Assembly: GCA_030158125.1 (NCBI GenBank)
Contig: JAOATL010000001.1
Coordinates: 206 to 64,205, forward strand
Length of the DNA stretch: 64,000 bases
Direction: 5' to 3'
DNA from: Limnohabitans sp.
GTDB taxonomy: Bacteria; Pseudomonadota; Gammaproteobacteria; Burkholderiales; Burkholderiaceae_C
A model generated the notes under the pieces. The model did no database searches. It was given only the letters and a program-made list of their open reading frames with translations, and had not been told where the DNA came from. Positions 10,679 to 37,980 of this stretch are shown here, one piece after another; positions within the stretch are counted from its first letter, which is position 1; each line of letters starts with the position of its first letter. The position numbers and the translations under genes were made by a program.

Positions 10679-11478
10679 AGATTCAATGATTTAACTTGGT
10701 TCAGTGCCGCAAGCATCATCTTGTGCAGCAGGGGCTGAACTTGTGCTGCCAATTGGGGTTGGTAGTCATAAGGCGGCAGTTCGCTCATGTAGATAGATTG
10801 ACATTTTTCAAGTTGAACGGCATGAATGCCTCCTTGAGGATTGCCATAGTGACGTGTGATGTAGCCACCTTTAAAGCGTCCATTGAGAACATGTGTAAAT
10901 TGGTCTTGCTGTTCGCAGACGCTCATCACGGCCTGCCCAACAGACTCCGCAGCGGCCAAACCGTTTGCCGTACCCACGTTCAAATCTGGCAATTTGCCTT
11001 CAAACAGCCACGAAATTTCACCTCTGATGCTGTGCGCATCCCACAACAGAACATTAGAGTGCAATGAACGGAGCCTGCGCAATTCCATTGCAAGGGCTTG
11101 GTGATAAGGCTGCCAGTATGTTTCTAGGCGACGCAATTTTTCTGCGACATCTGGCTCGCGGCCCTCTTTGTAAAGCAAATCACCCGTGAAAAAGCGTGTG
11201 GGGCACAGCTCTGTGTTGGATGCGCCTGGATACATGGGCGCATCATTAGGGGGCCGATTTAAGTCAATCACATACCGAGAAAATACGGGCGTCAAAATAC
11301 TGGCACCCATGTCTGTTAAAAAATTGTACAAATGGTTCAAATGCCAATCTGCGTCCTCCACTAAATGCGCGCGTGGAACATAGTTAGGCTTTAACGCTTC
11401 TGGCAAGCTGGTTCCCAAGTGGGGCATGCTCACAAGTAAGGGCGATGTGCCTTGGTGCAAATAAAATGTCGGTGTCAT
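10675..11478 (-). CDS. hutG: N-formylglutamate deformylase
   Basis: SMPHLGT, DADWH, SRYVIDLNRPP, YWQPYH, WDAHSI, LPDLNVGT, NGRFKGGYITRHYG; start MTPTF at 11478. Confidence 0.95.
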   Translation of the reverse strand: MTPTFYLHQGTSPLLVSMPHLGTSLPEALKPNYVPRAHLVEDADWHLNHLYNFLTDMGASILTPVFSRYVIDLNRPPNDAPMYPGASNTELCPTRFFTGDLLYKEGREPDVAEKLRRLETYWQPYHQALAMELRRLRSLHSNVLLWDAHSIRGEISWLFEGKLPDLNVGTANGLAAAESVGQAVMSVCEQQDQFTHVLNGRFKGGYITRHYGNPQGGIHAVQLEKCQSIYMSELPPYDYQPQLAAQVQPLLHKMMLAALNQVKSLNL

Positions 11479-11480
11479 TT

Positions 11481-12719: not shown

Positions 12720-13291
12720 GGTGAACACTCCATTTGAATCAACAGCACATGCATGTCATGGAATTCGATCTGAACGTCCTGCTCAAGTGTGACCCAATAC
12801 AAAGACATTTTGTTCAATTCTTGTCTTTGTTGATTGAGCACGAAATGTCCTCCTTCTTCTACAACAAAGACAGCCAAAGTGGTTTTTGCCTTGAATTTTT
12901 GGGCAAAAGTTAAGCGGTTGATCCGGGCCATGTTGGCTGTTGCACCCTGAACCATGAGATTGAAATCCAGGGTGGGACCGGCTGTGAGAGAACAATCACA
13001 GGGCGTATCGCCGGAGAACTGAATGACGGGATCCAAGGGCCCTAAGTCAATTTTATGATTGGGAAACGCCAGAGTAACACCGGCACCGTTGAGTACAGCA
13101 AACCACCGGTCTACGCCTTTGAATTCAGAAAACGGCCCATCGCTGTCAATCCGTGCGACAGACATTCTAAAAACCCATTCCGACGAATTAGGCCAACACA
13201 CCAAAGCTTGCGTAGTACCACCGCCATTTTTCCAGGGACTCGCGGGAACATCCCGAAGCCTTACTTCATGCCAATCTTGCAGGCGCGTCAT
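12716..13291 (-). CDS. hutD: HutD/Ves family protein
   Basis: PWKNGGGTT, R.SVA.I..DGPFS.F.GVDR, DFNLM. Confidence 0.93.
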   Translation of the reverse strand: MTRLQDWHEVRLRDVPASPWKNGGGTTQALVCWPNSSEWVFRMSVARIDSDGPFSEFKGVDRWFAVLNGAGVTLAFPNHKIDLGPLDPVIQFSGDTPCDCSLTAGPTLDFNLMVQGATANMARINRLTFAQKFKAKTTLAVFVVEEGGHFVLNQQRQELNKMSLYWVTLEQDVQIEFHDMHVLLIQMECSP

Positions 13292-13995
13292 TGAAAGGCA
13301 CCTTTAAAACTGTAACGACTAGCAGGATAAACAAGGCGAGCCAATGATGCGACCTGATTAGAACTGACAGTGGTTCGAACCATGACCAAACAGGCTTGTG
13401 ACGTTTTAATTTTCAAATGTTGTGCTTCCAAGTCAGATGGCAAAGCTGCTTCAATTGAATATGCCGCACTGGTGACCGGAACCACGTCCAACAAATGACG
13501 CGTAGGTGTCGTCTTAGAAAAATCAGTGGACAAATAGTGAGGCGCCAATTCTGGATTGACGTAGCGATCCTCAAATTGGAGTGGAACCCCATTTTCTAAG
13601 TGAACCATGATGGTGTGGAATAACAAACTTTTATCTGGCAGATTGAAGCAAGTCGAAAGCGCCTTGTTGGCCTTTATTTTCCCAACAAATATGACTTCTG
13701 TGCCGTGCACATGACCTCGTTCTTCAATCTCTTCTTGAATGTCACGAATTTCAAGCTTTGAAGAGACTTGGTCAATTTCAGCGACAAATGTGCCGGATCC
13801 CTGCACGCGCCTAACTACACCTTCTGCCATCAGTTCTCGCAGCGCACGGTTCACGGTCATGCGACTGACACTGAACTGGTGCATGAGCGCACTTTCGCTG
13901 GGCACAGGATCACCAGCAACCCATGCACCATTCTTGATTTTGGTGCAAATGAAAACTTTGACTTGCTCGTAAATGGGTACTTTTTCAAGATTCAT
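13288..13995 (-). CDS. hutC: Histidine utilisation repressor (GntR HTH + UTRA)
   Basis: PIYEQVK, PSE, VSRMTVNRAL, R.QGSGTFV, EDRYVNP; located in the hut cluster. Confidence 0.93.
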   Translation of the reverse strand: MNLEKVPIYEQVKVFICTKIKNGAWVAGDPVPSESALMHQFSVSRMTVNRALRELMAEGVVRRVQGSGTFVAEIDQVSSKLEIRDIQEEIEERGHVHGTEVIFVGKIKANKALSTCFNLPDKSLLFHTIMVHLENGVPLQFEDRYVNPELAPHYLSTDFSKTTPTRHLLDVVPVTSAAYSIEAALPSDLEAQHLKIKTSQACLVMVRTTVSSNQVASLARLVYPASRYSFKGAFQ

Positions 13996-14014
13996 ATTCT
14001 AGAGAATACTACGA

Positions 14015-14043
14015 TTGACAGAAGTTGTATAGACAACTAGGAT
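14015..14043 (+). promoter_or_regulatory. Sigma70 promoter of hutU with HutC operator in the spacer
   Basis: TTGACA (14015-20), 17 nt, TAGGAT (14038-43); palindrome AGTTGT-ATAG-ACAACT (14023-38) is close to the HutC TGTA-N2-TACA consensus. Confidence 0.85.
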
Positions 14044-14080
14044 GAACTTACTTTCAGTCAAATTGATAATCTTTTTCACC

Positions 14081-15784
14081 ATGACAGCCTCTACAAAAAC
14101 GAACCCTCCACTCAGAAAAGCACGCCCCGTCAGAGCACCACGCGGAACTGAAATCAGTTGCGCCAGTTGGGAAATTGAGGCAGCCTATCGAATGATTCAA
14201 AACAACCTCGATCCCGAAGTTGCAGAGAATCCCGATGAATTGGTGGTTTACGGCGGCATTGGAAAAGCAGCCCGAAACTGGGATTGCTTCGAAGCCATTT
14301 TGGAGTCGCTGAAAAAATTAATGCCGGATGAGACTCTGCTCATTCAGTCGGGTAAACCCGTAGGTATTTTCAAAACACACACTGGTGCACCACGTGTCTT
14401 GTTGGCCAACTCAAATTTAGTGCCCAAGTGGGCTACTTGGGAACATTTCAACGAACTCGATCGTGCAGGACTCATGATGTACGGCCAAATGACTGCCGGC
14501 AGCTGGATTTACATTGGCAGTCAAGGCATTGTTCAAGGCACGTACGAGACCTTTGTTGAAGCCGGCAGGCAACACTTCAATGGCGATTTATCGGGTCGAT
14601 GGATTTTGACAGCAGGCCTGGGTGGCATGGGGGGCGCACAACCTTTGGCCGCCACCTTTGCAGGCGCATGTTCACTGAACATTGAGTGTCAGCAATCGCG
14701 TATCGACTTTCGCTTAAAGACAAAATATGTCGACAAACAAGCCGCCACAGTTCAAGAGGCACTTGACATGATTGCATACCATACGGCTCGCAAAGAAGCC
14801 GTGTCTATTGCGTTGTGCGGCAATGCGGCCGAACTATTGCCTCAACTGGTTGCCATCGCCAAACAGGGCGGCATGCGCCCCGACATCGTCACTGACCAAA
14901 CATCCGCACATGACATCATTAACGGTTATTTGCCACTTGGCTGGACCCTAGAAGACTGGCGTGCAGCGCAAAAAGATCCTAGCCGCCATGCAGAACTCAC
15001 GCAGGCTGCAGGTGAGTCATGTGCCACTCATGTAAAGGCCTTGTTGGCATTTCATGAAATGGGCATTCCCACCGTTGACTACGGAAATAACTTAAGGCAA
15101 GTTGCCAAAGATTATGGTGTCGAGAACGCCTTTGACTATCCAGGCTTTGTACCTGCTTATATTCGTCCTCTTTTCTGCCAAGGCATCGGTCCATTTCGCT
15201 GGGTTGCACTGAGTGGCGACCCAGAGGATATTTTAAAAACCGACGCCAAAATGAAGGCGTTGTTTCCCCATCACAAGCACTTACACCGTTGGCTAGATAT
15301 GGCACAAGAGCGCATCAGTTTTCAGGGCTTGCCTGCGCGCATTTGCTGGATTGGCTTAGGCGAACGACATTTGGCAGGGTTGGCCTTTAACGAAATGGTT
15401 CGCAATGGCGAGCTCAAGGGGCCAATAGTCATCGGCCGAGACCATTTAGACAGTGGCTCTGTTGCTTCACCCAATCGAGAAACAGAAGCCATGATGGATG
15501 GCAGTGATGCTGTCAGTGATTGGCCCTTATTGAACGCGCTTCTAAACACAGCCAGCGGTGCCACGTGGGTCAGCTTGCACCACGGCGGTGGTGTCGGCAT
15601 GGGTTACTCGCAACACTCGGGCGTTGTCATTGTTTGTGACGGCACTCAGGCAGCTGATGAGAAGCTATCAAGGGTTTTGTTTAACGACCCCGCCACAGGC
15701 GTCATGCGCCATGCCGATGCAGGTTATGACCTGGCCAAAGAATCGGCCAAATTAAACAATTTGCAATTGCCTATGTTGATCTGA
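14081..15784 (+). CDS. hutU: Urocanate hydratase
   Basis: [55 protein letters not shown]; start placed downstream of the promoter at 14081. Confidence 0.97.
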
Positions 15785-15845
15785 TTTTTTCTGATTCATT
15801 TTCCCGCCGTATTTTTTTTCATTTTTTATTTACCAAGGAGCTCGC

Positions 15846-16790
15846 ATGAAACAACTCGTTACCTTCGCTTTGGCCTCAACCCTAAGCTGTGTTGCACTCG
15901 CCCAAGAAACCAAAGTGAGCATTGCGCTCTCTGGCTGGACGGGGTTTGCCCCGCTGACGCTTGCCAAAGAAGCTGGCATTTTTAAGAAAAATGGCCTGGA
16001 TGTCACCTTGAAAAAAGTGCCACAAAAGGATCGTCATTTGGTCTTGGCGTCAGGCGATGCGCAATGCGCAGCCACTACAGTTGAAACGTGGATTGCTTGG
16101 AATGCCAACGGCGTTGCCACAACTCAAATTTTTCAGCTTGACAAGAGCTTCGGTGCCGATGGCATGGTTGTTAAAAACGACATTGCCAAAATTACAGACC
16201 TCAAAGGCAAAACAGTTGCAGCGAGCGCCCCTGGAACAGCCCCCTTCTTCACACTGGCCTGGATGCTGAAAAAAAATGGCATGTCGACCAAAGACGTCAA
16301 GATTGTGAACTTAGAGCCACAACCAGCAGCCAACGCAATGATTGCAGGCAATGCTGGCATTGACGCCGCCATGACGTATGAGCCCTACCTTGGCGCTGTG
16401 CGTGCAAAGCCTGAAGCCGGCAAGATCATTGCCACAACACTTGACTACCCCATGATCATGGACACCTTCGGCTGCGTGCCTAAATTCTTGTCTGACAATC
16501 CCAAGGCTGCAAAAGCCATTGCAGACAGTTACTTCGAAGCCATTGAAATGATCAGCAAAGAACCTAAGAAAAGCTTTGCGATCATGGGAGCTGATGTGAA
16601 ACAAACTGGAGAGGCATTTGAAGCCAGTCAGAAGTATTTGCGCTGGCAAGATCGTGCTGCAAATCTGAAGTTTTTCAGTGGCGAGCATGCGCAATTCAGC
16701 AAAGAAGCGGCAGATTTACTTTTAGAAGCAGGCATCATCAAACAATTACCCGACATGAGTAAATTGGCTGATACGCGCTTTATCAAATAA
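15846..16790 (+). CDS. NitT/TauT-family ABC substrate-binding protein
   Basis: Signal peptide; SGWTGFAP, GADG...K.DI..I.DLKGK.VA; AAGGAG RBS. Confidence 0.88.
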   Translation: MKQLVTFALASTLSCVALAQETKVSIALSGWTGFAPLTLAKEAGIFKKNGLDVTLKKVPQKDRHLVLASGDAQCAATTVETWIAWNANGVATTQIFQLDKSFGADGMVVKNDIAKITDLKGKTVAASAPGTAPFFTLAWMLKKNGMSTKDVKIVNLEPQPAANAMIAGNAGIDAAMTYEPYLGAVRAKPEAGKIIATTLDYPMIMDTFGCVPKFLSDNPKAAKAIADSYFEAIEMISKEPKKSFAIMGADVKQTGEAFEASQKYLRWQDRAANLKFFSGEHAQFSKEAADLLLEAGIIKQLPDMSKLADTRFIK

Positions 16791-16795
16791 GAAAC

Positions 16796-17572
16796 ATGCG
16801 CCCATTGCAACCTGTATCACCTGGCGCCAAAGTGGCGCTGGGTATTTCATTCTTTGTTGTGTTCTTCGCTGTGTGGGCATTTGCCACATTGGGGGGCTAC
16901 GTTTCAAAGACATTTTTGGCTGATCCGATCACGATGGTCAGATCGGGTATTGATCTCTTGGTCAACCAAGGATTTGGATTTGACATTGGCATGACTGTTT
17001 GGCGTGTGTTGGGCGGCTTTTTTATAGCGGCCATTCTGGCCATTCCAATTGGTGTTTTGATGGGCGCCTACAAACCCATCGAAGCATTTTTGGAGCCCTT
17101 CGTCAGCTTTGCCAGGTACCTTCCTGCTTCTGCCTTTATTCCACTCCTCATTTTGTGGGCAGGCATTGGTGAAACTCAAAAATTAGCGGTCATCTTCATT
17201 GGATCATTCTTCCAATTGATCCTGATGATTGCGGTCTCTGTGGGCAACACCCGGCGTGATTTGGTTGAAGCCGCTTACACGCTTGGCGCAAAAGACAGCG
17301 GTGTCGTAACACGCGTGCTATTACCAAGTGCATCCCCAGAATTGGCCGAAACCTTGAGAATGGTTTTGGGTTGGGCATGGACTTATGTCATTGTGGCCGA
17401 GCTCATTGGCGCTTCAAACGGCATTGGTCACATGATCACCGATAGCCAAGCTTTAATGGCCACTGATCAAATTATTTTTGGAATCATCGTCATTGGCTTG
17501 ATCGGCTTGATCACAGATATTGCCTTCAAATCCTTCAACCGGTGGCTCTTCCCATGGGCACGTTTAAGTTAA
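16796..17572 (+). CDS. NitT/TauT-family ABC permease
   Basis: RYLPASAFIPLLILWAGIGE, LVEAAYTLGA, W..VIVAELIGA..GIG. Confidence 0.92.
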   Translation: MRPLQPVSPGAKVALGISFFVVFFAVWAFATLGGYVSKTFLADPITMVRSGIDLLVNQGFGFDIGMTVWRVLGGFFIAAILAIPIGVLMGAYKPIEAFLEPFVSFARYLPASAFIPLLILWAGIGETQKLAVIFIGSFFQLILMIAVSVGNTRRDLVEAAYTLGAKDSGVVTRVLLPSASPELAETLRMVLGWAWTYVIVAELIGASNGIGHMITDSQALMATDQIIFGIIVIGLIGLITDIAFKSFNRWLFPWARLS

Positions 17573-17575
17573 AAA

Positions 17576-18355
17576 ATGTCCATCCTTCACATCTCTCAAG
17601 TTAGCAAAACATTCAACACGCAAGGTTCAGTGACACAAGCACTGACGGCTACCGACCTGACTGTTGAAGAAAATGATTTCATTACCATACTGGGGCCTTC
17701 TGGTTGCGGCAAATCGACTCTACTGCGGATGGTTGCGGGTCTAGATACGCCGTCATCGGGTGAAATAGAACTAGAAGGCGTTCGAGTCACTGGGCCTGGC
17801 CCTGATCGCGGCATGGTGTTTCAAAGCTACACCCTCTTCCCATGGCTGAACATTTTAGAAAACGTGTGTTTTGGATTGCGTGAAAAAGGCTTGCCTATTT
17901 CAGAGCAGCATGACATTGCGCATCAATTCTTAAAAAAAGTGGGCCTGCAAGACTTTGCAAATCACTATCCCAAACAACTGTCTGGTGGCATGCAGCAAAG
18001 AACTGCATTGGCACGTGCACTGGCCAATGACCCACGCATCTTGCTGATGGATGAACCCTTTGGCGCCCTCGACCATCAAACACGAGAATTGATGCAAGAG
18101 TTACTCCAGGATATTTGGCAATCCGAGAAAAAAACAGTTTTATTTGTCACCCACGACATTGATGAAGCCATCTTCATGGGAAATCGTGTCATGGTGATGA
18201 GTGCAAGGCCAGGTCGCATCAAATGCGATTTACCTATTGCCCTACCCTACCCTCGCCATTATTCGGTCAAGACTTCCCCAATGTTTTCAGAACTCAAAGC
18301 CAGGCTGACAGAAGAAATTCGCATTGAAGTTAGGCGAGCAAGCGGGCTCGAATAA
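17576..18355 (+). CDS. NitT/TauT-family ABC ATPase
   Basis: [32 protein letters not shown]. Confidence 0.95.
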
Positions 18356-18399
18356 GTCACGGTGACAGTTGTTGTGTTCTTGCTTTGAAGGCGCTAATC

Positions 18400-19953
18400 A
18401 TGATTTCATCTACAAGTCACCCATTGGTTTTAACGCCAGGACACCTAACGATTGAGCAACTGAAGTTAATTCATCAGAATCAGCAGTTCATTGCATTGCA
18501 AGATGGCTGCAGACCGGCCATTCGCAAGAGTCAACTGTTGGTGGAAGCTTATGCCAATGGTGATGACCCCGTATACGGTGTCAACACCGGTTTTGGCAAA
18601 CTGGCCAACCAACGAATTAACAAAGCGCAACTGCAGACCTTGCAGCTGAACTTAATTCGCTCACACAGCGTGGGTGTAGGTGAGCCTCTTTCTGCACCCA
18701 TCATTCGACTCATGATGGCAACCAAAGCAGCCAGCTTGGCACGCGGCCATTCAGGTGTTAGAGACATCGTCATCGATACGCTATTAGCTGTTCACAATGC
18801 AGGTTTGATACCTGACGTACCTTCGCAAGGCTCTGTCGGTGCATCTGGTGATTTGGCGCCGCTTGCGCACATGACATTGGCATTACTCGGAGAAGGTTAT
18901 ATCTGGGTCAATGGCATCAAAAGGCCTGCACTTGATGCACTCAATGAGGCGGGCATTGCACCCTTAACCTTAGAAGCCAAGGAGGGTTTGGCCCTCATCA
19001 ACGGCACCCAAACATCAACTGCATTGGCTTTGCATGCCCTCTTTCGTTTTGAACCTGTATTTGATGCCGGTTTGCTGATTGGCGCTCTTACCATCGATGC
19101 TACGCGCGGCAGTGATGGGCCTTTCGACGCACGTATTCACGAATTACGCGGACAACTCGGACAAATTGAAGTGGCCAGGGTGTACCGAAATCTACTGATT
19201 GGCAGTGAGATCAGAAACTCACACCGCGAAGGCGATGATCGGGTACAAGACCCTTACTGCCTCAGATGTCAGCCACAAGTGGTGGGTGCCTGCCTTGATC
19301 AAATCAAGCACGCCATAAAAATCTTAACCATCGAAGCGAATGCAGTCACAGACAATCCACTTGTCTTTGCCGACGACGGCGTGATGTTGTCTGGCGGTAA
19401 TTTTCATGCTGAACCGGTTGCGCTTGCTGCCGATGGCCTGGCGTTGGCCATTGCAGAAATTGGGGCAATAGCAGAAAGACGCATTGCCATGCTGATTGAC
19501 AGCAATGTTTCGCAACTTCCCCCCTTCTTAACCAAAGATGCGGGACTTAACAGTGGCTTCATGATTGCTCATGTGACCGCTGCTTCCCTAGCATCAGAGA
19601 ACAAGTCATTGGCACATCCTGCTAGCGTGGACAGCTTGCCTACCAGCGCAAACCAAGAAGACCATGTCAGCATGGCCACCTTTGCAGCAAGGCGTCTGCA
19701 AAGCATGGTTAGCAATACGGCTTATATCCTCAGTATTGAGTGGCTGGCTGCTGCACAGGGCATAGAGTTTCTGAGGCCTTTGCAAACTTCAGAAGCGCTA
19801 GAAAATGCAATGAGTATTTTGAGAAAGCAAGTTTCATTCATGGATCAAGATCGTTGGTTATCACCTGATATTGAGGCAGCGGCCATCCTAGTCAACAGCG
19901 GGCAGCTTTCTAAACTCTTGCCAAATTTTCATTTAGTTGAAGAGATGCATTGA
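18400..19953 (+). CDS. hutH: Histidine ammonia-lyase
   Basis: [16 protein letters not shown] (His-specific SH), MIO motif [25 protein letters not shown]. Confidence 0.96.
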
Positions 19954-19984
19954 GCTGCAAATAAAAACCAACGTAAAACGCAGC

Positions 19985-20737
19985 TCACCGAGACAAGTCA
20001 ATGTTGTACCTGAACATCGCCGGGTTGTAGATACTTTGCTCGCAATGCAAGGCTTGTTCGTCATGGGCAAACACTGTTTTTTCCACTTTCAGAACAGCAG
20101 CAGGCGATGTCAAACCCAACTGTTGAATTTGCACTGGCGTTGCCAAAGCAGAGGTAATTTCTACAGAGGCACGCGCCAACCGAATGCCATGTGTTGCTTC
20201 GTAAAGCGTTAGCAAGTCGGCTGTTTCCAATGAATCGCGTGTCAAGCCTTTCGCCGCCATTGGGTTAAGCCAGATGTGATTGATAGACAAAGGCTTGTTG
20301 TCCACGTAGCGCAAAGTTTGAAGTGCCATGCAGTGCTGTTTAGCGCCTAACCCCAAAAGGGTACGAATGCTTGGCGGGGCTTGTAATTTTTTCCACATGA
20401 GCACCTGCGTACGCACTTGCATCCCCTGATGCCCCAATGCTTCGGTCAAACCTTGCAATCGCGTGAGCTCCTGCCGCACTTTTCCTGGAGAAACAAACGC
20501 GCCTTTTCCTTGCATTCGGACGATCAATCCTTCTGCAGTTAGATCGGCCAGGGCTTGGCGCACGGTGATGCGACTCACGCCATGCATTTTCCCCAGTTCA
20601 TTTTCACTGGGCAATTGATCTCCCGTTTTCAAATCTCCAGCATGAATTTGACTGCGAATGAACTCACGCAATTGACTGCTAAGGGTCAAGCCAGCATCAC
20701 TTAGATTCGCAGGAACGATTTTTGCTTTACTTGTCAT
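19985..20737 (-). CDS. GntR-family regulator, HutC/UTRA subfamily
   Basis: LPSE.EL...GVSRITVRQAL..L..EGLI.R.QGKGAFV followed by a UTRA-like domain. Confidence 0.9.
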   Translation of the reverse strand: MTSKAKIVPANLSDAGLTLSSQLREFIRSQIHAGDLKTGDQLPSENELGKMHGVSRITVRQALADLTAEGLIVRMQGKGAFVSPGKVRQELTRLQGLTEALGHQGMQVRTQVLMWKKLQAPPSIRTLLGLGAKQHCMALQTLRYVDNKPLSINHIWLNPMAAKGLTRDSLETADLLTLYEATHGIRLARASVEITSALATPVQIQQLGLTSPAAVLKVEKTVFAHDEQALHCEQSIYNPAMFRYNIDLSR

Positions 20738-20738
20738 G

Positions 20739-20754
20739 ACATGTTATAACGTGT
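20739..20754. promoter_or_regulatory. Putative GntR (HutC-subfamily) operator ACATGTTATAACGTGT
   Basis: Near-perfect 16-bp palindrome with GT-N-TA-N-AC core between the divergent regulator and the bug gene. Confidence 0.7.
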
Positions 20755-20802
20755 TGATCGCTCGCCATTTTGGTGCCTTTTCCTTCAGACTAGGAGTTTC
20801 TG

Positions 20803-21795
20803 ATGCCCTCTTTTGGTTTTCCAACCCGCCGTTCGGCGCTTGCCCTGTTGATTGCAGTAACCAGTACCGTTGCTTCTGCGCAAGTTGCAAATTATCCAAG
20901 CAAACCCGTCACCGTGATTGTGCCATTCGCAGCAGGCGGCAGCGTTGACTCTGCTGCACGTGTGGTGCTGCAATCCTTGAGTGAACGAACCAAACAATCC
21001 TTTGTTGTAGAAAATGTGGCGGGCGCCGCAGGCACGATTGGTACGCAAAAAGTTGTGCGCGCAAACAACGATGGTTATACATTGTTGTTTGCAGTTGCCA
21101 GTCCAATCAATGTTGCACCCGTGGTGAAACCATCGATGGTTCAATACAACGCGCTTAAAGAGCTCACACCCATTGCCACTGTCGCCAGTTCCCCCTTTGT
21201 GCTCATTGCAAACAACAAGCTGCCAGCCAACAATGCCGCTGAATTGTTGGCCCTGGCCAAAAAAGAACCCGGTAAATTGAATTACGGCACAGACGGCGTT
21301 GGCACGTCTATGCATCTGACCGCTGAAATAATCAAGCTCAACGCTGGCATTGATGTGCTACACGTGCCCTACAAAAACGGCCCACAAGTCCTGACCGAAT
21401 TGTCTGCAGGCCTAATCGAACTTGCTGTGATGCCCATTTCACTGGCGCAGCCATTTATCAAGGACGGAAAAGTCAAGGCAATCGGTGTGACTTCCAAAAA
21501 CAGATGGCCATCTATGCCCAGCATACCTGCGCTGTCTGAAACACAAGGTCTTCAAAAGTTGGACGAAGATTCTTGGTATGGCATGCTTGCGCCTGCTGGG
21601 ACACCCGCGGCCATCGTTGAGAAAATTGCCACGGCTTTGCGTGATGCTTTAAAAGATCCCGTCTTGGTAGAAAAAATGACGCAAGCAGGACTTAAGCCCA
21701 TGAGCGTTGATGGCGCGGCGTTTGCCAACCTCTTGCAAAAAGAGCGGGACAACCTGGTCGCTGCCGTTAAAGCAGCGGGCATCAAGCCGGAATAA
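20803..21795 (+). CDS. Bug/TctC tripartite tricarboxylate transporter binding protein
   Basis: YPSKPVTVIVPFAAGGSVD, VVENVAGAAG.IG, HVPYK.G; AGGAG RBS. Confidence 0.93.
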   Translation: MPSFGFPTRRSALALLIAVTSTVASAQVANYPSKPVTVIVPFAAGGSVDSAARVVLQSLSERTKQSFVVENVAGAAGTIGTQKVVRANNDGYTLLFAVASPINVAPVVKPSMVQYNALKELTPIATVASSPFVLIANNKLPANNAAELLALAKKEPGKLNYGTDGVGTSMHLTAEIIKLNAGIDVLHVPYKNGPQVLTELSAGLIELAVMPISLAQPFIKDGKVKAIGVTSKNRWPSMPSIPALSETQGLQKLDEDSWYGMLAPAGTPAAIVEKIATALRDALKDPVLVEKMTQAGLKPMSVDGAAFANLLQKERDNLVAAVKAAGIKPE

Positions 21796-21797
21796 GC

Positions 21798-22544
21798 ATG
21801 CTGGCGTTGATAGGCGGATGGTTGCTGATAGTCTTGGCGGGAATTGCCATTGGCGCCACTTCCATTGGCGGGGTGATTGTGGTCCCGGCACTCACAGCCC
21901 TGTTGGCAATGACTTTGCCAACGGCGCTGGCCGTGTCCAGTTTGGCTTTTCTGGCCACAGGGCTTTGGGCCCTCCTGCATGAAAAGTCAAACAGCCTGTC
22001 AACTTTGTTGGCCAATGCACCGCTTATGATGTCGGCGTTGGTCGGTGCGTTCATGGGTGCGTACGGCGCGGACCTTGTGCCAATCCAATGGGGCCGATTG
22101 TGGGTAGGATGCCTGGCACTGGCCTCGGGCATCTACAGCCTGCTTCAAATGAAGCAAGGGGATGTCAATACCGCACACCATCATTGGCCCTCAAAGGTTG
22201 CTCAAGTAGGCATTGGCTTTTTTGTTGGTGCAGGGTCGTCCCTCTCGGGTACGGGTGGACCTGTTCTTTTGTTGCCATTTTTAAGCCTCACACAGCGTCC
22301 CATTGAGCGCTCGATTGCAACCGCACAATTGATACAAATTCCAATTGCACTTGCGGCTTCCGCTGCACACTTATCCGCAAATCGGATCAATTGGGAGATG
22401 AGCTTTTTGGTGGCATTTTTTCTGCTGAGTGGCGCGGTGCTTGGAAAGAAATTATCGCAACGATACGCCATCCGTGTACTGAAAATTATCACGTCTGTTC
22501 TGCTGATCATCACAGGCGTCTGGTTTTTGTTTCCTGCAAATTGA
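21798..22544 (+). CDS. TauE/SafE-family membrane protein
   Basis: G.T.IGG..VVP motif repeated as G.GGPV.L.P; 8 predicted TM segments. Confidence 0.85.
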   Translation: MLALIGGWLLIVLAGIAIGATSIGGVIVVPALTALLAMTLPTALAVSSLAFLATGLWALLHEKSNSLSTLLANAPLMMSALVGAFMGAYGADLVPIQWGRLWVGCLALASGIYSLLQMKQGDVNTAHHHWPSKVAQVGIGFFVGAGSSLSGTGGPVLLLPFLSLTQRPIERSIATAQLIQIPIALAASAAHLSANRINWEMSFLVAFFLLSGAVLGKKLSQRYAIRVLKIITSVLLIITGVWFLFPAN

Positions 22545-22558
22545 CACACTCTCACCTC

Positions 22559-23941
22559 ATGAACAATTTAGACGTCTTGCAAGCCAACGAGTTATTGCTC
22601 AAACCTGAACTGACATTGCTTGATGAAATACCTCAAGCCGGTATGGGCATCGTGGTGCGTCAGGGCCGGTTTACAGACCTGGGGTTGTTTGCAGAAGTTC
22701 AATCCCGACATCCGCACTTGAAGGCCATTGAACTGCCGGGTCGATTGCTCATGCCTGGTTTCATCGACACCCATAACCATCTCACACAGTCCTATGGCAA
22801 GGCCTTGGCATTTGGCGAGCCCTCGGAAATTTTCAAGCGAATCTGGGTGCCACTTGAACAGCACCTCACAGTTGAAGACTTAGAAATTTCAGCTCAGTTA
22901 TCTGCTTTCGAATCGATGCGTGGTGGCTTCACCACTGTTTGTGACGCGGGCACTCGCTCGGAGGCTGGGCTAGAGGCCATTGAGACAGCGGTCAATACCG
23001 TTGGTATGCGATGTGTTCTTTCAAAGATTTGTCACGATCTGGGGCAAAGTCCAGCACAAACAAGTGAGCTAGAAAAACAAGCATCACAGCATTTAGCGCG
23101 TTACCCATCCGATGGCTTGATCCATCCTTCATTGGCCATCGCCATTCCAGAAGCAGCCTCTGATCACATGCTCCACACGGTGTCCCATCTTTGCCGCGAA
23201 TCTGGTGTGGCATTTCAGGTCCATGTCAACGAACATGTTGCCTCAGTTGAACGCTCCTTGGTGACTCGCGGAAGGCGGCCGCTTGAAGTGCTGCAGCATG
23301 CGAACGCGTTGGGTCCAGAATTGCTCGCTGCACACGTTACCCTTGTGACGCCCAATGAGTTGAAGATGTTGAAAGACAAGGGATCAGCAGTCAGTTACAA
23401 CCCTGTCGCCAGCAGTTGGAAAGGAAACGCAGTTGCACCCGCATTACAAATGGCCACGATGGGCATCCGAATTGGACTGGGTACAGACGGGACAAGAGGT
23501 GACGGTTTTAGATTGCTCGATGCTGCAGAAACGGCTCAACGCCTTACCCTGGGCATGAGTGTTGCCGACTTTTCTGTGGGTGCTGGATGGACATGGTTGG
23601 CAATGGCCAGTGCATGGGGCGCCGATGCGGCGCACCTCAGCCATGTAACGGGCAAAATCGCAACAGGTTTGCAAGCTGACTTCTTGCTGGTTGACATCAA
23701 TGTGCCCGAGTTAAAACCTTCGTGGGACTTGGGCTGGGAATTGGTTCGATTGGCCAACAGAAGCCAAATTGAAGCTGTCTTTGTACAAGGGAAAATGCGA
23801 CTATGGCAAGGCTGGCCCCTTGATTGGGATGCAAAAGCTTTGATGCAAAAGGCCCAAGAACGTGCAAGCATTGCAGTCAATGCTGCGCCCATCCAAAGAA
23901 TTCACCCAACTTCAGCCAATGCCAGACACCCAAATACATGA
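22559..23941 (+). CDS. Metal-dependent amidohydrolase/deaminase (AtzA/MtaD/SsnA-like), substrate unknown
   Basis: PGFIDTHNH (HxH), HVNE (HxxE), AAH, GLGTDG, G.QADF; probable start 22559. Confidence 0.88.
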   Translation: MNNLDVLQANELLLKPELTLLDEIPQAGMGIVVRQGRFTDLGLFAEVQSRHPHLKAIELPGRLLMPGFIDTHNHLTQSYGKALAFGEPSEIFKRIWVPLEQHLTVEDLEISAQLSAFESMRGGFTTVCDAGTRSEAGLEAIETAVNTVGMRCVLSKICHDLGQSPAQTSELEKQASQHLARYPSDGLIHPSLAIAIPEAASDHMLHTVSHLCRESGVAFQVHVNEHVASVERSLVTRGRRPLEVLQHANALGPELLAAHVTLVTPNELKMLKDKGSAVSYNPVASSWKGNAVAPALQMATMGIRIGLGTDGTRGDGFRLLDAAETAQRLTLGMSVADFSVGAGWTWLAMASAWGADAAHLSHVTGKIATGLQADFLLVDINVPELKPSWDLGWELVRLANRSQIEAVFVQGKMRLWQGWPLDWDAKALMQKAQERASIAVNAAPIQRIHPTSANARHPNT

Positions 23942-23978
23942 TTGGCTCATGGGCGCTTTATTCACTCTTTGAATTGTT

Positions 23979-24695
23979 TTAAGCAAGGCTTCTCCCCTCC
24001 CCTCGCTCCTCGTGTGTTTCCCCGTCTCGGATGTGATAAATGCGTTCAAATGTGGGAATGATTTTTTCGTCGTGTGTCACCACAATGATGGCGGTGTTGG
24101 CCTGCTTGGCCATTGCATGAAGGATGCGCATCACCCCCAGCGCGCGTTCGCTGTCTAGGGGTGCTGTGGGCTCATCTGCCAAGATAACAGGTGGCCGATT
24201 GGCCAATGCCCTGGCGATCGACACCCTTTGTTGTTCGCCGCCTGACAATTGAGATGGCGCAGCCTTGGCGCGGTGCACCACATCCAACGCAGTGAGCAAC
24301 TCGATGGCACGAAGTCTGGCCTGCGCATTGGGCACACCTGCCAGCATGGGCAGCAGGGCAACGTTGTCCATGACGTCTAGAAATGGAATGAGGTAAGGCG
24401 CTTGAAAAACAAAGCCGATGCGATCTCTGCGCAAGGCACGCAAATCTGGCAGGATCCAGCCATTGTCATAAATGAGCTCATCACCCAAGGTCATTCGGCC
24501 TGAAGTCGGCTCGATGATAGCGCCCAAGCACTTCAGCAAGGTACTCTTGCCGGAACCAGAAGGGCCAACCAGCCCAACCACTTCTCCCGGCGCGACTTTC
24601 ATGTTGACGTTTTTCAAAGCCTCAACCGCGGTGTCACCGTGACCATAGACTTTTCTCAAATTTTCAATGGTGATGCCACCCGATGCATAGTTCAT
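23979..24695 (-). CDS. ABC exporter ATPase (MacB/LolD-like)
   Basis: GPSGSGKST, GFVFQ, LSGGEQQR, LADEPT, VTHD; start MNYASGG at 24695. Confidence 0.92.
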   Translation of the reverse strand: MNYASGGITIENLRKVYGHGDTAVEALKNVNMKVAPGEVVGLVGPSGSGKSTLLKCLGAIIEPTSGRMTLGDELIYDNGWILPDLRALRRDRIGFVFQAPYLIPFLDVMDNVALLPMLAGVPNAQARLRAIELLTALDVVHRAKAAPSQLSGGEQQRVSIARALANRPPVILADEPTAPLDSERALGVMRILHAMAKQANTAIIVVTHDEKIIPTFERIYHIRDGETHEERGEGRSLA

Positions 24696-24705
24696 GACTG
24701 GCCCC

Positions 24706-25917
24706 TTATCCAATGGCCTGCGCCGGATCAACACGCAATGCTGCACGAATTGCCAAGGTGCTGGCAAGTGCGCAGATCAACATCGTGAGCACAAAACCAA
24801 GCAGTGCATCTTGGTTCAGCAACAACACAAACTTCGGAAAAATCGGGGCCCAAAATGTTGCGGACACTTTGCCGACGACAAACCCAATCACACCCAATCC
24901 CAAAGCTTGCTGCAAAATCATCCAAGCAATGGTGGCGTTGGTCGTTCCAATCAACTTGAGCACGGCAATTTCTCTGATCTTGCCAAGCGTCATGGTGTAA
25001 ATGATGAAAGCCACAATGGCAGCGCTGACAATGGCGAGAATGACCAAGAACATGCCAATTTGCTTGGCTGAAGTGGCTATCAGTTTTTTCACCAAAATGT
25101 CTTCCATGTCCGCACGGGTATAAACCGTCAAGTGCTTCCAACGCTGAATAGGCTCTGCCACAAGCGAGGGATGCCAACCCGGTAATACGCGAACCAAAAC
25201 AGCATTCACATTTCGACTACTGGTTTGCAAATTTTGAACGGCCTCCAGCAATCCTGGCACCGATGGCCGATTGAAGGCGGGGTTGGCGGCGGTGCGCAGC
25301 CGGTCGTTCACCACGGCGTCGTTGTCTTTCAAAAATTGAGCTTCTTGCGCATCTTTAAGCGGTATGAAAACCATGGGATCGCCGCCCGAGGACACCATTC
25401 TTTGGGTCAAACCCACTACCTCGTAAACGTGCCGTCGTATTTGAATTCGATCGCCCAAAGCAAATCCTGTTTTGACGTCGGCAACGGCTTCGTAATGACT
25501 GCGAGCCAGGTGTCTACCCGCTACTAAATAAGCAGGCTGCCCCGGCAATTGCAATGCGTTGGGCTCGATGCCCACAACCATGCTGCGTGTTTCGCGCGCA
25601 TCGCTGGTCTTTAACACTTTCACCTGCATGGTGAAATAAGTGATGTTGGCCGCCTGCGCCACACCAGGCATAGCCACAACGCTACGCAAAATATCATCTT
25701 TTAAACTTGAGGCCTCGGCATAGGGCCCTTGTGTGTCTTTCTGCACCAGCCACAGGTCAGCGCCACTGTTTGTAAGCAGTGCTTGTGCATCATCGACCAT
25801 GCCTCGAAACACACCCGCCATGGTGAGGGTGACCCCAATCAACAAACCAAGGCCGATACCTGTCAACACGAACTTGGCCCAGTTGTGGCCAATGTCCCTG
25901 GCTGCCAGACTGATCAT
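24706..25917 (-). CDS. ABC permease, FtsX/MacB-like
   Basis: N-terminal TM, large periplasmic loop, 3 C-terminal TMs; K.REIAVLKLIG; A.RVDPA end. Confidence 0.9.
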   Translation of the reverse strand: MISLAARDIGHNWAKFVLTGIGLGLLIGVTLTMAGVFRGMVDDAQALLTNSGADLWLVQKDTQGPYAEASSLKDDILRSVVAMPGVAQAANITYFTMQVKVLKTSDARETRSMVVGIEPNALQLPGQPAYLVAGRHLARSHYEAVADVKTGFALGDRIQIRRHVYEVVGLTQRMVSSGGDPMVFIPLKDAQEAQFLKDNDAVVNDRLRTAANPAFNRPSVPGLLEAVQNLQTSSRNVNAVLVRVLPGWHPSLVAEPIQRWKHLTVYTRADMEDILVKKLIATSAKQIGMFLVILAIVSAAIVAFIIYTMTLGKIREIAVLKLIGTTNATIAWMILQQALGLGVIGFVVGKVSATFWAPIFPKFVLLLNQDALLGFVLTMLICALASTLAIRAALRVDPAQAIG

Positions 25918-27110
25918 GGTTGCGCTTTCTTGACCAACGCACTGACCCGCTTAAAACGCGTATTGGGCGTCAAAGATTTTTCTGTGTAGACAACCACTTC
26001 ATCATCGATTTTCAAACCTTGACGGACCTGAACCCAGCCATCCAAACTGAATGCACCCAACTCAACATCGACAAACTCAAGTTGATTGGCGTGAAGTTTC
26101 CAAACCCCGGACCGTCCTTGATACTGCTGAACACTGGCTTGCGGTATTTGCAAAGTGGGCGCAGTGGCCATCAGACTTAAAGTAAGCTCGGCCGTATCAC
26201 CCATTGAAACATTGGCAGGTAAATGATCAAACGACACTTGTGCAATTCGTTCTTCTGTCACAGCATCAGACTGCCATTCCACACGAGCCACTTTGCCTGC
26301 CAATGTTTGATGTGGATTTGCGCGCAAGACAATGCTAGCGGGCAATCCAACAGCCAAGCCCAGTGATCTCCCCTGATCTATGCGCATTCTGACCCACAGA
26401 CTCTGGGGCTGCGCCAAACGCAGCACGGCTTGCCCGGCCACAACGGTACTCCCTGCTTCGGCATCCCGGCTGATCACGACAGCATCGGCTGGCGCCAACA
26501 AGCGCATGGACTGACGTTGCAGAGCCGCAGCATGCTTGTCGGCCTGAATTTTTTGAATGTCTTGCAAGGCAGAAATCAAATTGGCCTGCGACACCTTGAA
26601 GCCAGCATTGGCAGAGACCCATTCTTGCTCCCGGCTTTCTAGCGCACCCTGACTGATAAAGCTTTGTTGAGCGAGATCTTTTTGACGCAGCCAATTGGCA
26701 TTGGCCACGGCACGCCGCATTTGTGCGTCTTCAAGTTGCGCTTGAACAGTGGCCAATACACTTTCAGCTTTGGCCAGGGCAGCTTCTTGGCTTTTGACAC
26801 GCTGATCAAGGTCTAACGGGTCCATCTCTGCCAGCAATTGGCCTGCTTTCACATGCTGACCGACCGTGACATGAACGCGCAGCACGCGACTTGCCGCCAG
26901 AGGTCCCAACAACCAGCTCTGTTGCGCCTCGACAGTACCGACACCATAAATAGAAGGTGTTAGCGCTTTATTTTCTACGCGCGCAGATGTGATTTGGACG
27001 GGCGCCAAAGGTCCCATCCGAAATGCAACAAATGAAAGCAAAGACAACAAGGCCAGCCCGACAAATGCCACGGCGATGTGTTTTGGCGTCAGCTGTGGGA
27101 GTTTTTTCAT
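25914..27110 (-). CDS. Efflux periplasmic adaptor subunit (MacA/HlyD family)
   Basis: N-terminal membrane anchor, V.VGQ.VKAGQLLA lipoyl half, alpha-helical hairpin, L.AP.DAVV..R. Confidence 0.9.
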   Translation of the reverse strand: MKKLPQLTPKHIAVAFVGLALLSLLSFVAFRMGPLAPVQITSARVENKALTPSIYGVGTVEAQQSWLLGPLAASRVLRVHVTVGQHVKAGQLLAEMDPLDLDQRVKSQEAALAKAESVLATVQAQLEDAQMRRAVANANWLRQKDLAQQSFISQGALESREQEWVSANAGFKVSQANLISALQDIQKIQADKHAAALQRQSMRLLAPADAVVISRDAEAGSTVVAGQAVLRLAQPQSLWVRMRIDQGRSLGLAVGLPASIVLRANPHQTLAGKVARVEWQSDAVTEERIAQVSFDHLPANVSMGDTAELTLSLMATAPTLQIPQASVQQYQGRSGVWKLHANQLEFVDVELGAFSLDGWVQVRQGLKIDDEVVVYTEKSLTPNTRFKRVSALVKKAQP

Positions 27111-27301: not shown

Positions 27302-28363
27302 TCAGAGCCGAGATTTCTCGTCGCGCTCATACCAAGCCTTGGAGTTGTTCACGATGTACACCACGAACAACATCAATGGCACCTCAATCAAAACGCCCAC
27401 CACTGTGGCCAATGCAGCCCCTGATTCAAAGCCAAACAGACTGATGGCCGCCGCAACCGCCAACTCAAAGAAATTAGAAGCGCCAATCAGTGCAGAAGGA
27501 CACGCGATGTTGTGTTTCTCACCAACAGCGCGGTTGAGCCAGTAAGCCAACGCAGAATTGAAAAGCACCTGAATGAGAATGGGCACGGCCAAAAGCGCAA
27601 TGACCAGTGGTTGATTCAAAATTGCTTCCCCTTGGAAAGCAAACAGCAGCACCAGAGTGGCCAACAAAGCTGCAATAGACCAGGGGCCAATTTTTGAAAT
27701 GACAGCGTCGAAAGCCTGCGCGCCTTTGGCCAACAAGACTTTGCGAATCAACTGTGCAAAGATCACTGGCATGACGATGTACAGTACCACCGAAGTTAGC
27801 AATGTGTCCCATGGCACGGTAATCGCAGACAAGCCAAGCAAAAAAGCCACCAAAGGTGCAAAGGCGATGACCATGATGCTGTCGTTGAGCGCCACTTGCG
27901 ACAAGGTGAACAATGGGTCGCCGCCTGTCAGGCGACTCCAAACAAACACCATGGCCGTGCAAGGTGCAGCGGCCAGCAAAATCAAGCCAGCAATGTAGCT
28001 GTCAATTTGCTCGGCAGGCAACAAGGGGGCAAATAAATACCGAATGAAAAACCAACCCAGCAAGGCCATTGAAAACGGCTTTACCAGCCAGTTGACAAAC
28101 AAGGTCACACCAATGCCTTTGACGTGCTGACGCACCTCATGCAAAGCGCCAAAATCCACTTTAATCAGCATTGGAATGATCATGACCCAAATCAGCAAAC
28201 CCACTGGCAAATTGACCTTTGCAATTTCCATGCTTCCAATGGCTTGAAACACAACAGGAAAGAACTGACCCAAAGCAATCCCTGCAAGGATGCACAAGAA
28301 AACCCAAACAGTCAGGTAACGTTCAAACACACTCATGGGTGCAACTTGTTGATCTTGCTTCAT
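27302..28363 (-). CDS. acr3: ACR3-family arsenite efflux transporter
   Basis: MSVFERYLTVWV, NWLVKPF, GLILLAAAPCTAMV, NFFELAVA, GVLIEVP. Confidence 0.96.
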   Translation of the reverse strand: MKQDQQVAPMSVFERYLTVWVFLCILAGIALGQFFPVVFQAIGSMEIAKVNLPVGLLIWVMIIPMLIKVDFGALHEVRQHVKGIGVTLFVNWLVKPFSMALLGWFFIRYLFAPLLPAEQIDSYIAGLILLAAAPCTAMVFVWSRLTGGDPLFTLSQVALNDSIMVIAFAPLVAFLLGLSAITVPWDTLLTSVVLYIVMPVIFAQLIRKVLLAKGAQAFDAVISKIGPWSIAALLATLVLLFAFQGEAILNQPLVIALLAVPILIQVLFNSALAYWLNRAVGEKHNIACPSALIGASNFFELAVAAAISLFGFESGAALATVVGVLIEVPLMLFVVYIVNNSKAWYERDEKSRL

Positions 28364-28373
28364 TTGGGAATCT

Positions 28374-28880
28374 TCAGTCTTTGGCCAAATCGCGCGCTGT
28401 CTTTTCAATGGACAGTCGAGTCAAACTGCTCAAGGGCAAGTTAACCAATAGTTCTAAGCGTTTGCGAATCAGGTGCAATGTTTGCAAAAAGGCTTCGTGC
28501 TTTTGAGCGTCGTCACCCTGCACGTCAGACGGATCTGCATAGCCCCAATGCGCAGTGGCTGGTTGGCCTGGCCAATACGGACAGACCTCCCCTGCGGCGT
28601 TGTCACACACCGTGATCACCAAGTCCATTTGGGGTCCATCGGCTTGCGCAAAAACGTCCCAGTTTTTGCTACTCAAGCCCTCCACAGACAAACCTGCCTT
28701 GCGCAGCGTTTCAATGGCCATGGGGTTGGGCTTCTGATTTGCTCGAGGACTGCTGCCCGCCGAATAGGCTTTAAATCGCCCTTTGCCCAAATGATTCAAC
28801 ATGGCCTCGGCCAAGATGCTTCTGGCCGAGTTGTGGGTACATAAGAAAAGGACATTCAAAGGTTTGGTATCGGTGTTCAT
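28374..28880 (-). CDS. arsC: Arsenate reductase, LMW-PTP fold
   Basis: LFLCTHNSARS P-loop, AYSAGS, TVCDNAAGEVCPYWPG, HWGYADP. Confidence 0.93.
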   Translation of the reverse strand: MNTDTKPLNVLFLCTHNSARSILAEAMLNHLGKGRFKAYSAGSSPRANQKPNPMAIETLRKAGLSVEGLSSKNWDVFAQADGPQMDLVITVCDNAAGEVCPYWPGQPATAHWGYADPSDVQGDDAQKHEAFLQTLHLIRKRLELLVNLPLSSLTRLSIEKTARDLAKD

Positions 28881-37915: not shown

Positions 37916-37980
37916 TTTTTTCTCCCACTTTGAAGGTCTTGAGCTTGGGTGATCAAACAATCACCTCTAATTGCACACCG

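Follow-up and report, generated by a model that had tools for sequence, protein, structure and literature searches.

A conserved Bug-TauE-amidohydrolase unit of Limnohabitans: a candidate nitrogen-scavenging module whose enzyme family is near-constantly paired with TSUP membrane proteins

The subject of this study is a four-gene unit in a Limnohabitans sp. genome (GenBank assembly GCA_030158125.1, contig JAOATL010000001.1). The window, by which we mean the whole stretch of 64,000 nucleotides that was analyzed (positions 206 to 64,205 of the contig), carries a gene for a GntR-type regulator that is transcribed divergently from the genes for a TctC/Bug periplasmic solute-binding protein, a polytopic membrane protein of the TauE/SafE (TSUP) family, and a metal-dependent amidohydrolase of the cog0402 (TRZ/ATZ/guanine-deaminase-like) branch (Table 1). 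A first-pass annotation had described a UTRA-type regulator divergent from a tight Bug-TauE-amidohydrolase operon; gene coordinates and Pfam scores confirm this arrangement, and all four genes were found where that annotation had placed them. The regulator combines an N-terminal winged helix with a C-terminal UTRA domain, the Bug protein begins with a Tat-like signal peptide (TRRSAL...ASAQ), and the membrane protein scores well above the Pfam gathering threshold for TauE. The TauE start codon lies 2 nt past the Bug stop codon and the enzyme start 14 nt past the TauE stop codon. The enzyme most likely starts at the ATG at 22559, giving 460 residues, rather than at the TTG at 22391; an identical 460-residue product is already present in the database (P0005). 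With a guanine-plus-cytosine (GC) content of 0.513, the unit lies approximately one standard deviation under the genome mean (0.539 ± 0.027), which would make it no more than a mild compositional island.

The amidohydrolase displays the hallmarks of the cog0402 branch of its superfamily: the HxH, HxxE, His and Asp motifs and a (β/α)8 barrel with an accessory β-sandwich. Residues H72, H74, Q77, H222, E225, H259, and D310 do not vary among the 24 family members compared, which agrees with the earlier observation that the HxH, HxxE, and D ligands are intact, and all of these except Q77 align with matching metal or catalytic residues of 4dyk, a solved cog0402 deaminase. An AlphaFold model (predicted template modeling score 0.80) superposes on 4dyk, 4f0s, and 7ww2 with template modeling scores of ~0.8. 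The best matches in the PDB are all cog0402 deaminases and hydrolases at 16–24% identity, and include adenosine/methylthioadenosine (MTA)-type deaminases, AtzA, the isocytosine deaminase Vcz, TrzN, and guanine deaminases. The enzyme nevertheless falls under every curated NCBIfam cut-off. Its best score is 169 bits against the 540 required by PRK09045, the model for MTA/S-adenosylhomocysteine (SAH) deaminase and TRZ/ATZ hydrolase, and its scores on the guanine deaminase model TIGR02967 (109.7 against 375.4 bits) and the HutF model TIGR02022 (71 against 413 bits) are well short of the respective cut-offs. Assignment as HutF, GuaD, MtaD, SsnA, or any other named family was ruled out on this basis. 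Q77 occupies the position of a methionine in 4dyk, and the HxHxxM motif of PRK09045 is thus not matched.

Four segments of the model (P0001), residues 75–93, 127–132, 284–291, and 311–340, have a predicted local distance difference test score (pLDDT) below 50. These coincide with the most conserved family-specific motifs, FGEPSEIF, AGTR, SSWKGNAV, and DGTRxDGFRLxDAAETAQR, and three of them (75–93, 284–291, and 311–340) are family-specific invariant loops. The segments probably form a mobile lid over the substrate-binding site, as judged from the model and from their conservation.

Family members are encoded in at least 499 species genomes, across the Proteobacteria, Bacillota, and Actinomycetota, with enzymes that are 56–60% identical between phyla. 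The closest 80 members are 55–73% identical to the enzyme of the window and occur in Burkholderiales, Halomonadaceae, Paracoccus, Bradyrhizobium, Bacillaceae, and Streptomyces. Clustering of a library at 50% identity left approximately eight full-length clusters that score above 300 bits (40–56% identity); scores then fall to 159 bits and 31% identity for the following protein, and the family appears to be sharply delimited. Public names for its members are generic, either "amidohydrolase family protein" or an automated "MTA/SAH deaminase", and full-text literature searches returned nothing on the enzyme family or on an enzyme-TSUP pairing. Together with the sub-threshold scores, this sustains the view of the first-pass annotation that the unit is uncharacterized. 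Since the family is common in genomes from pristine freshwater, marine, and soil habitats, a natural substrate is expected. The enzyme was absent from all 24 congeneric genomes searched, and this absence and the slightly low GC content both fit an accessory, horizontally acquired block.

To describe the genomic context of the family we use the 80 loci of the closest enzyme relatives, whose neighbors were clustered and annotated, with called genes on further contigs added. Four arrangements recur. In type A, found in approximately 20 loci that all belong to Burkholderiales or betaproteobacterial bins and that include the window, a gntR gene diverges from Bug-TauE-enzyme. Type B, in 53–54 of the 80 loci and in a marine metagenome relative that is 48% identical, has a lacI or lysR gene divergent from an NCS2 permease-enzyme-TauE series. 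Type C combines a gntR or lacI gene, a NitT/TauT-type ATP-binding cassette (ABC) permease, an ATPase, and an SsuA-like binding protein with enzyme-TauE, and occurs in Skermanella, Methylobacterium, and a 40%-identical relative. In type D, from Bacillaceae, the enzyme gene is accompanied by an HTH_17-NMT1 regulator and by an NMT1 binding protein whose gene directly precedes TauE; no ABC membrane genes were present among the annotated neighbors of these Bacillaceae loci. The first-pass annotation had considered that the four genes might not be conserved together. They are: the type A loci share one gene order, and their Bug proteins are 55–77%, their enzymes 60–74%, and their GntR proteins 36–55% identical to those of the window. 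Because this order recurs with orthologous proteins in ~20 Burkholderiales loci, the four-gene arrangement does not appear to be a matter of chance.

The most constant element beside the enzyme is the membrane protein. A TSUP domain is encoded within 400 bp of the enzyme gene and on the same strand in 73 of the 80 loci (downstream in 53 and upstream in 20), and slightly beyond 400 bp in three further loci. The pairing is kept even in relatives that are 40% identical. Between type A and types B and C, the TSUP proteins share 27% identity, no more than unrelated paralogues of one genome, whereas the enzymes of the same loci are ~57–60% identical; the Bacillaceae TSUP represents a third, more divergent type. 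This disparity indicates that the pairing has been assembled more than once, through repeated recruitment of a TSUP protein, and such repeated assembly is strong evidence for a predicted functional coupling between the enzyme and its TSUP partner.

Table 1. Coordinates of the features of the window discussed in the text
Feature	Position	Strand	Evidence or remark
GntR/UTRA regulator gene	19985-20737	-	Pfam GntR (PF00392) 70 bits, UTRA (PF07702) 89 bits
TctC/Bug solute-binding protein gene	20803-21795	+	Pfam TctC 224 bits
TauE/SafE (TSUP) membrane protein gene	21798-22544	+	Pfam TauE (PF01925) 106.5 bits, cut-off 32.6
cog0402 amidohydrolase gene	22559-23941	+	Amidohydro_1 125 bits
Candidate sigma-54 promoter, -24 GG / -12 GC (AGGAACgatttTTGCT)	20711-20726	+, toward Bug gene	conserved motif, GG-N10-GC
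Two overlapping 16-bp palindromes (ACTTGTCATGACATGT and ACATGTTATAACGTGT), candidate GntR operator	20729-20754		consensus ACWTGTTATAWCAWGT
NtrC-like inverted repeat TCGCC-N5-GGTGC, between operator and ribosome-binding site	20762-20776		GCACC-N5-GGTGC in relatives
hutF	9320-10678	-	469.5 bits, over NCBIfam cut-off
hutG	10675-11718	-	over NCBIfam cut-off
hutI	11481-12728	-	over NCBIfam cut-off
hutC	13288-13995	-	TIGR02018 271.7 bits, cut-off 220
hutU	14042-15784	+	over NCBIfam cut-off
NitT/TauT-type ABC system (SsuA-like binding protein, permease, ATPase)	15846-18355		between hutU and hutH
hutH	18385-19953	+	over NCBIfam cut-off
ABC ATPase gene (MacB-type set)	23979-24767		set convergent with the unit
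FtsX/MacB permease gene	24706-25917
HlyD-type adaptor gene	25914-27110
ACR3 arsenite efflux gene	27302-28408		follows the MacB-type set
pbuX-type NCS2 permease gene	36425-37960	-	522 bits

What the TSUP protein does is less readily apparent. The first-pass annotation, which had noted that Bug proteins usually bind carboxylates and lack local TctAB partners, offered it either as the membrane partner of Bug or as an exporter of the product. The premise stands: no TctA or TctB gene lies near the Bug gene, so that the unit lacks the TctC-TctA-TctB combination of a TctABC system, no TctA is encoded in the window, and tctB-tctA directly adjoins the unit in just one of the ~20 type A loci. The genome encodes 57 TctC proteins and 5 TctA proteins, the latter on other contigs; orphan Bug genes are the norm in this organism, and shared TctAB units are available to them. 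Of the two proposed roles, the product-linked one is favored, as TauE stays with the enzyme even where no binding protein is present. The TSUP protein is unlikely to be simply the missing partner of Bug because it is retained both in type B loci, which have no binding protein, and in type C loci, which have a complete ABC importer. Since complete alternative importers co-occur with it in the NCS2 and ABC loci, it would not be needed for uptake there, and the simplest common denominator across the loci would be export of the enzyme product.

TauE genes elsewhere in the genus were surveyed for their association with Bug (loci L084 from this genome, and L121 and L135 from relatives). In this genome, an operon at C10:223329-227405 encodes a Rieske (LigXa-like) oxygenase, a Bug protein, a 330-residue protein of no assigned function, and TauE. 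In relative G045 a Bug-TauE pair with a 4-bp overlap lies beside a reductase and an aldehyde dehydrogenase, and in relative G007 an operon runs TctA-TctC-TauE-aldehyde dehydrogenase-porin.

These loci bear on an alternative in which the TSUP protein is an importer that works with the adjacent binding protein (Bug, or the NMT1-type protein in Bacillaceae) as a new binding-protein-dependent secondary transporter, with NCS2 and ABC systems as parallel routes of uptake. The 2-nt spacing of Bug and TauE, the overlap of the pair in G045, the second Bug...TauE operon in this genome, and the scarcity of neighboring tctAB genes are all consistent with such a partnership, as is the position of NMT1 directly before TauE in two Bacillaceae loci that have no ABC permease or ATPase among their annotated neighbors. 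Bug genes are also present in 11 of 46 TauE-centered 6.7-kb windows of the genus compared with 11% of random windows; this enrichment is no more than about two-fold and the windows are not independent. Against the alternative, TSUP and enzyme occur together without any binding protein in 53–54 loci, and the ABC-type loci encode a complete ABC importer as well. Furthermore, TctA, TctC, and TauE share one operon in G007, which shows that TSUP coexists with TctA rather than replacing it, and an orphan Bug gene is nothing unusual in this genome. We consider an importing TSUP to be rather unlikely.

The exchange of uptake systems around a conserved enzyme provides clues to the substrate. The NCS2 permease encoded upstream of the enzyme in the 53–54 type B loci is nearest to xanthine permeases (346 bits on the pbuX model and 130 on that for uracil permease), which points to a planar, nucleobase-like compound. 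The first-pass annotation had proposed an amino-heterocyclic acid, and the amino-heterocycle part of that proposal fits the replacement of Bug by NCS2 in most other genomes. An NCS2 permease encoded in the window itself shares 30% identity with that of the module and was rejected as its orthologue; this protein is a true pbuX-type xanthine permease, with an insertion of ~50 residues (approximately 190–240) relative to the module-type proteins. Its gene adjoins a histone-deacetylase-family gene, with no purine-catabolic genes nearby, and none were found elsewhere in the window.

A second clue is the invariant Gln three residues past the HxH motif (THNHLTQS, Q77). In the guanine-deaminase cluster, the class of substrate is set by the Gln that follows β-strand 1 (HxHxxQ), which binds the exocyclic oxygen in 2-amino-4-oxo compounds, and the reaction proceeds by 1,6 conjugate addition (PMC12828455). 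Q77 has the same spacing as this Gln; as residues 75–93 of the model have a pLDDT below 50, the spacing is known from the sequence alone. The sole cog0402 paralogue in this genome besides HutF (C12:29420-30877; L144:2418-3833, minus strand) is of the 8-oxoguanine/isocytosine deaminase type, matching 3hpa with 628 bits and Vcz (7ww2) with 592 bits, and has the same THxHxxQS pattern (THHHMCQS). No amidohydrolase-type guanine deaminase above the TIGR02967 cut-off is encoded in this genome. Plain guanine is unlikely to be the main substrate because 10 of 12 module-bearing genomes hold a separate canonical GuaD that exceeds the cut-off. Many invariant Arg and Lys residues are located in the family-specific loops around the active site, and these, along with the involvement of Bug, SsuA-like, and TSUP proteins, suggest an anionic substrate. 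Conceivably the substrate may also be sulfonated, the first-pass annotation having thought it possibly sulfur-containing, or may be a guanidino or amidino acid on which the enzyme would act as HutF does on its own substrate.

Two sets of neighboring genes were observed outside the conserved core. In several Bug-type loci (L005, L007, and L008, Hydrogenophaga-type, approximately 3260–4550) an arginase-family (ureohydrolase) gene lies directly downstream of gntR and is co-directional with it; this gene is absent from the window. The metagenome contigs L101–L103 carry the 40%-identical relative P0133 in a GntR-TauE-enzyme order. On the 3' side of this unit are a second GntR, an NMT1 binding protein, a 650-residue type-I phosphodiesterase/nucleotide pyrophosphatase, and ABC genes, and on the 5' side are genes for an arylsulfotransferase and a Bmp (nucleoside-binding) lipoprotein. 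The neighbors of P0133 may hint at the class of the substrate.

The 65-bp region between gntR and the Bug gene is conserved among type A loci and contains three candidate regulatory elements (Table 1). The palindrome, the first copy of which includes the gntR start codon, is unique in the window, where 0.05 chance matches are expected, and its position is conserved in all 17 Bug-type loci that cover the intergenic region as well as in both GntR-bearing ABC-type alphaproteobacterial loci. A sigma-54-like element, TGG(C/A)A(C/T)-N5-TTGC(T/A/G), is found at a fixed distance from the palindrome in ~14 of the 17 Bug-type loci, and lies outside the gntR frame in three. The NtrC-like inverted repeat is present in ~13 of the 17 and was also flagged as a weak hairpin by a terminator scan; elsewhere in this genome, a perfect GCACC-N5-GGTGC precedes the porin-amtB genes. 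A scan of 19800–24100 returned no sigma-70-like promoter, compared with 3.3 expected. From these motifs we infer that GntR may repress the operon at a nitrogen-controlled sigma-54 promoter.

A distance of 31 bp separates the unit from the end of hutH, and the first-pass annotation had suggested that its substrate possibly feeds the histidine utilization (hut) pathway. Given this proximity, a regulator that belongs to the HutC subfamily, and an enzyme that is a distant relative of HutF, we considered whether the unit is an accessory branch that supplies an imidazole compound to the neighboring hut genes. The hut locus is complete in its own right, with hutF, hutG, hutI, hutC, hutU, and hutH all separately present and above curated cut-offs. 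The regulator scores 119.8 bits on the HutC model TIGR02018 (cut-off 220), and was rejected as HutC, the true HutC being encoded within the hut locus; the enzyme falls similarly short of the HutF model. The operon faces hutH in convergent orientation and is served by a regulatory region of its own. No orthologue of hutH, hutU, hutI, hutF, or hutC lies within 7 kb of the enzyme gene in any of the 80 related loci, and adjacency to hut therefore appears to be incidental. The suggestion of a substrate feeding hut was abandoned, and a hut branch seems to us very improbable.

The hut locus (9320–19953) has a GC content of 0.487, close to the 5th percentile of the genome. A close hutH (89% identical) is present in one of the 24 congeners, on a truncated contig, and the hutH of other congeners is ~56% identical; with no enzyme-bearing congener among the 24, this left no pair of genomes for an empty-site comparison. 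The ABC system embedded between hutU and hutH was examined as a possible orthologue of the enzyme-linked ABC system of the alphaproteobacterial loci and rejected, as the binding proteins have no detectable similarity and the permeases are 32% identical. On the other side of the unit lie a MacB-type efflux set and an ACR3 arsenite efflux gene, neither of which is kept with the unit in other genomes.

Taken together, we propose that the unit is a self-contained, horizontally mobile, nitrogen-scavenging module. In this model Bug would capture an anionic amino-substituted N-heterocycle in the periplasm, probably with a guanine-, pterin-, or isocytosine-like 2-amino-4-oxo core, and would deliver it to a shared TctAB membrane unit, of which the genome has five. 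The cytoplasmic amidohydrolase, which by sequence and predicted fold appears to have the full cog0402 deaminase machinery, would then hydrolyze the exocyclic amino (or amidine) group with release of ammonia, and the TSUP protein would carry the deaminated, more acidic product out of the cell. The UTRA-type GntR would sit on the palindrome and keep the operon repressed until it is itself bound by the substrate or a derivative, while the sigma-54 promoter and NtrC-like site would confine expression to nitrogen limitation. We give about an even chance to this reading, in which an anionic amino-heterocycle resembling guanine or a pterin is imported and deaminated, and the product expelled, under nitrogen control.

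Several observations weigh against it. Characterized TSUP proteins handle sulfite or sulfonates and not oxo-heterocycles, and nucleobases are not the classic ligands of Bug and NitT/TauT binding proteins. The Bacillaceae loci, in which a binding protein and a TSUP are the sole transport genes, are a better fit to a TSUP importer. At the regulatory region, most loci have the first gntR codons within the sigma-54-like element, whose conservation may thus in part reflect coding constraint, and no such element is apparent in L001 and L003, the two closest loci. Unusually, the NtrC-like site is placed downstream of the putative promoter, and in the window its left half has two mismatches.

The sulfur association of TSUP proteins raises the alternative that the enzyme displaces a sulfur leaving group (sulfite, a thiol, or a thioether) from a sulfonated or thiolated heterocycle, in the manner in which AtzA and TrzN displace chloride or methylthio groups, and that the TSUP protein exports sulfite. 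AtzA and TrzN are among the nearest folds. No cog0402 enzyme is known to give off sulfite, and both the HxxE glutamate and the guanine-deaminase-type glutamine fit deamination. The context is similarly divided. SsuA/TauA-like binding proteins and TauC/SsuC-like permeases are found in the ABC variants, an arylsulfotransferase gene adjoins the 40%-identical relative, and the other Bug-TauE operons of the genus, with their Rieske oxygenase or aldehyde dehydrogenase, look like sulfonate metabolism. Nitrogen-type regulatory motifs, on the other hand, suit the acquisition of nitrogen rather than sulfur, and no sulfite dehydrogenase or other sulfonate-pathway genes were seen in the conserved core of the loci, although no specific search for them was made. 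The best-characterized TSUP proteins export sulfite or sulfoacetate (Weinitschke 2007, as cited in PMC5373536), which speaks for a link to sulfur; on balance we regard desulfonation as improbable.

The distribution of the family also lends itself to another explanation, namely that the module deaminates a toxic base analogue, an antimetabolite produced by neighbors, and pumps the product out, with the gain of nitrogen as a side effect. A patchy, horizontal-looking occurrence, as seen in the absence from all 24 congeners, enzymes that remain 56–60% identical across phyla, near-constant pairing with an efflux-type membrane protein, and repressors that hold the module silent until the compound arrives would all be in keeping with detoxification. 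If the compound were a toxin, there would be little reason to set a dedicated high-affinity importer (Bug, NCS2, or ABC) ahead of the enzyme, and the sigma-54 and NtrC-like motifs point to nutrition; detoxification is in our view quite improbable.

Returning to the deaminase model, it is useful to compare the unit with systems that it resembles. The guanine-deaminase cluster (GuaD, 8-oxoguanine deaminase, the isocytosine deaminase Vcz, pterin and isoxanthopterin deaminases, and AtzB) shares with the enzyme the (β/α)8 fold, the HxH, HxxE, His, and Asp motifs, and, by spacing in the sequence, the HxHxxQ glutamine. The enzyme differs in its low identity to solved members (16–24%), in its score on the GuaD model (109.7 against 375), and in the family-specific invariant loops that AlphaFold did not place; by sequence it is slightly nearer to the MTA/adenosine-type deaminases. 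In codBA-type operons, a nucleobase permease and an amidohydrolase-fold deaminase act in nitrogen scavenging, and the unit likewise places a cog0402-type deaminase under common regulation with an importer, within a single operon. It departs from them in its near-constant TSUP, in an importer that is Bug, NCS2, or ABC and not an NCS1 permease, and in an enzyme Gln that, in the sequence, occupies the GuaD and not the CodA position.

The TauE protein of the unit resembles the TauE/SafE sulfite and sulfoacetate exporters (TC 2.A.102) in its Pfam TauE score (106 bits) and in its operon position beside a catabolic enzyme. Unlike those systems, the unit has no sulfonate-cleaving enzyme (Xsc, SuyAB, SsuD, or similar), and its TSUP slot is filled by two or three unrelated subfamilies. 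The Bug protein is comparable to TctABC and to the orphan Bug proteins of Burkholderiales, being a TctC-family protein with a Tat-like signal and an orphan gene, but it lacks TctA and TctB in all except one related locus and, within this unit, is always paired with a TSUP gene. The s-triazine hydrolases AtzA, TrzN, and TriA, which remove an N-heterocycle substituent by hydrolysis, belong to the same superfamily branch and are top structural matches, yet the enzyme is 16–20% identical to them. No atzD, atzE, or atzF was seen among the conserved neighbors of the 80 loci, in the course of an analysis that did not search for them specifically.

A bolder version of the deaminase model can be formulated, which we hold to be speculative and unlikely as it stands. 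The TSUP protein could be the obligatory efflux or exchange partner of the whole deaminase family; alternatively, where it occurs with Bug or in Bacillaceae, it could be the membrane part of a new binding-protein-dependent secondary transporter. In either case the substrate of the family could be a natural anionic 2-amino-4-oxo heterocycle outside known pathways. Candidates in this case are pterin-6-carboxylate from folate photolysis and a 7-deazaguanine acid. If true, either outcome for the TSUP protein would represent a non-sulfur role for these proteins, which are among the least understood of the common transporters, and a new route of nitrogen scavenging for bacteria of freshwater, marine, and soil habitats.

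The family thus combines wide occurrence and strong conservation over phyla with the lack of an assigned substrate, and its near-constant pairing with TSUP proteins, recruited on more than one occasion, strongly signals at the genomic level a coupled function that is as yet undescribed. The conserved operator and the sigma-54 and NtrC-like motifs offer a ready regulatory handle on the module. The identity of the substrate would annotate hundreds of operons, would supply the ligand for an orphan Bug protein, one among many, and would test whether TSUP proteins export deaminated heterocycles or work with binding proteins.

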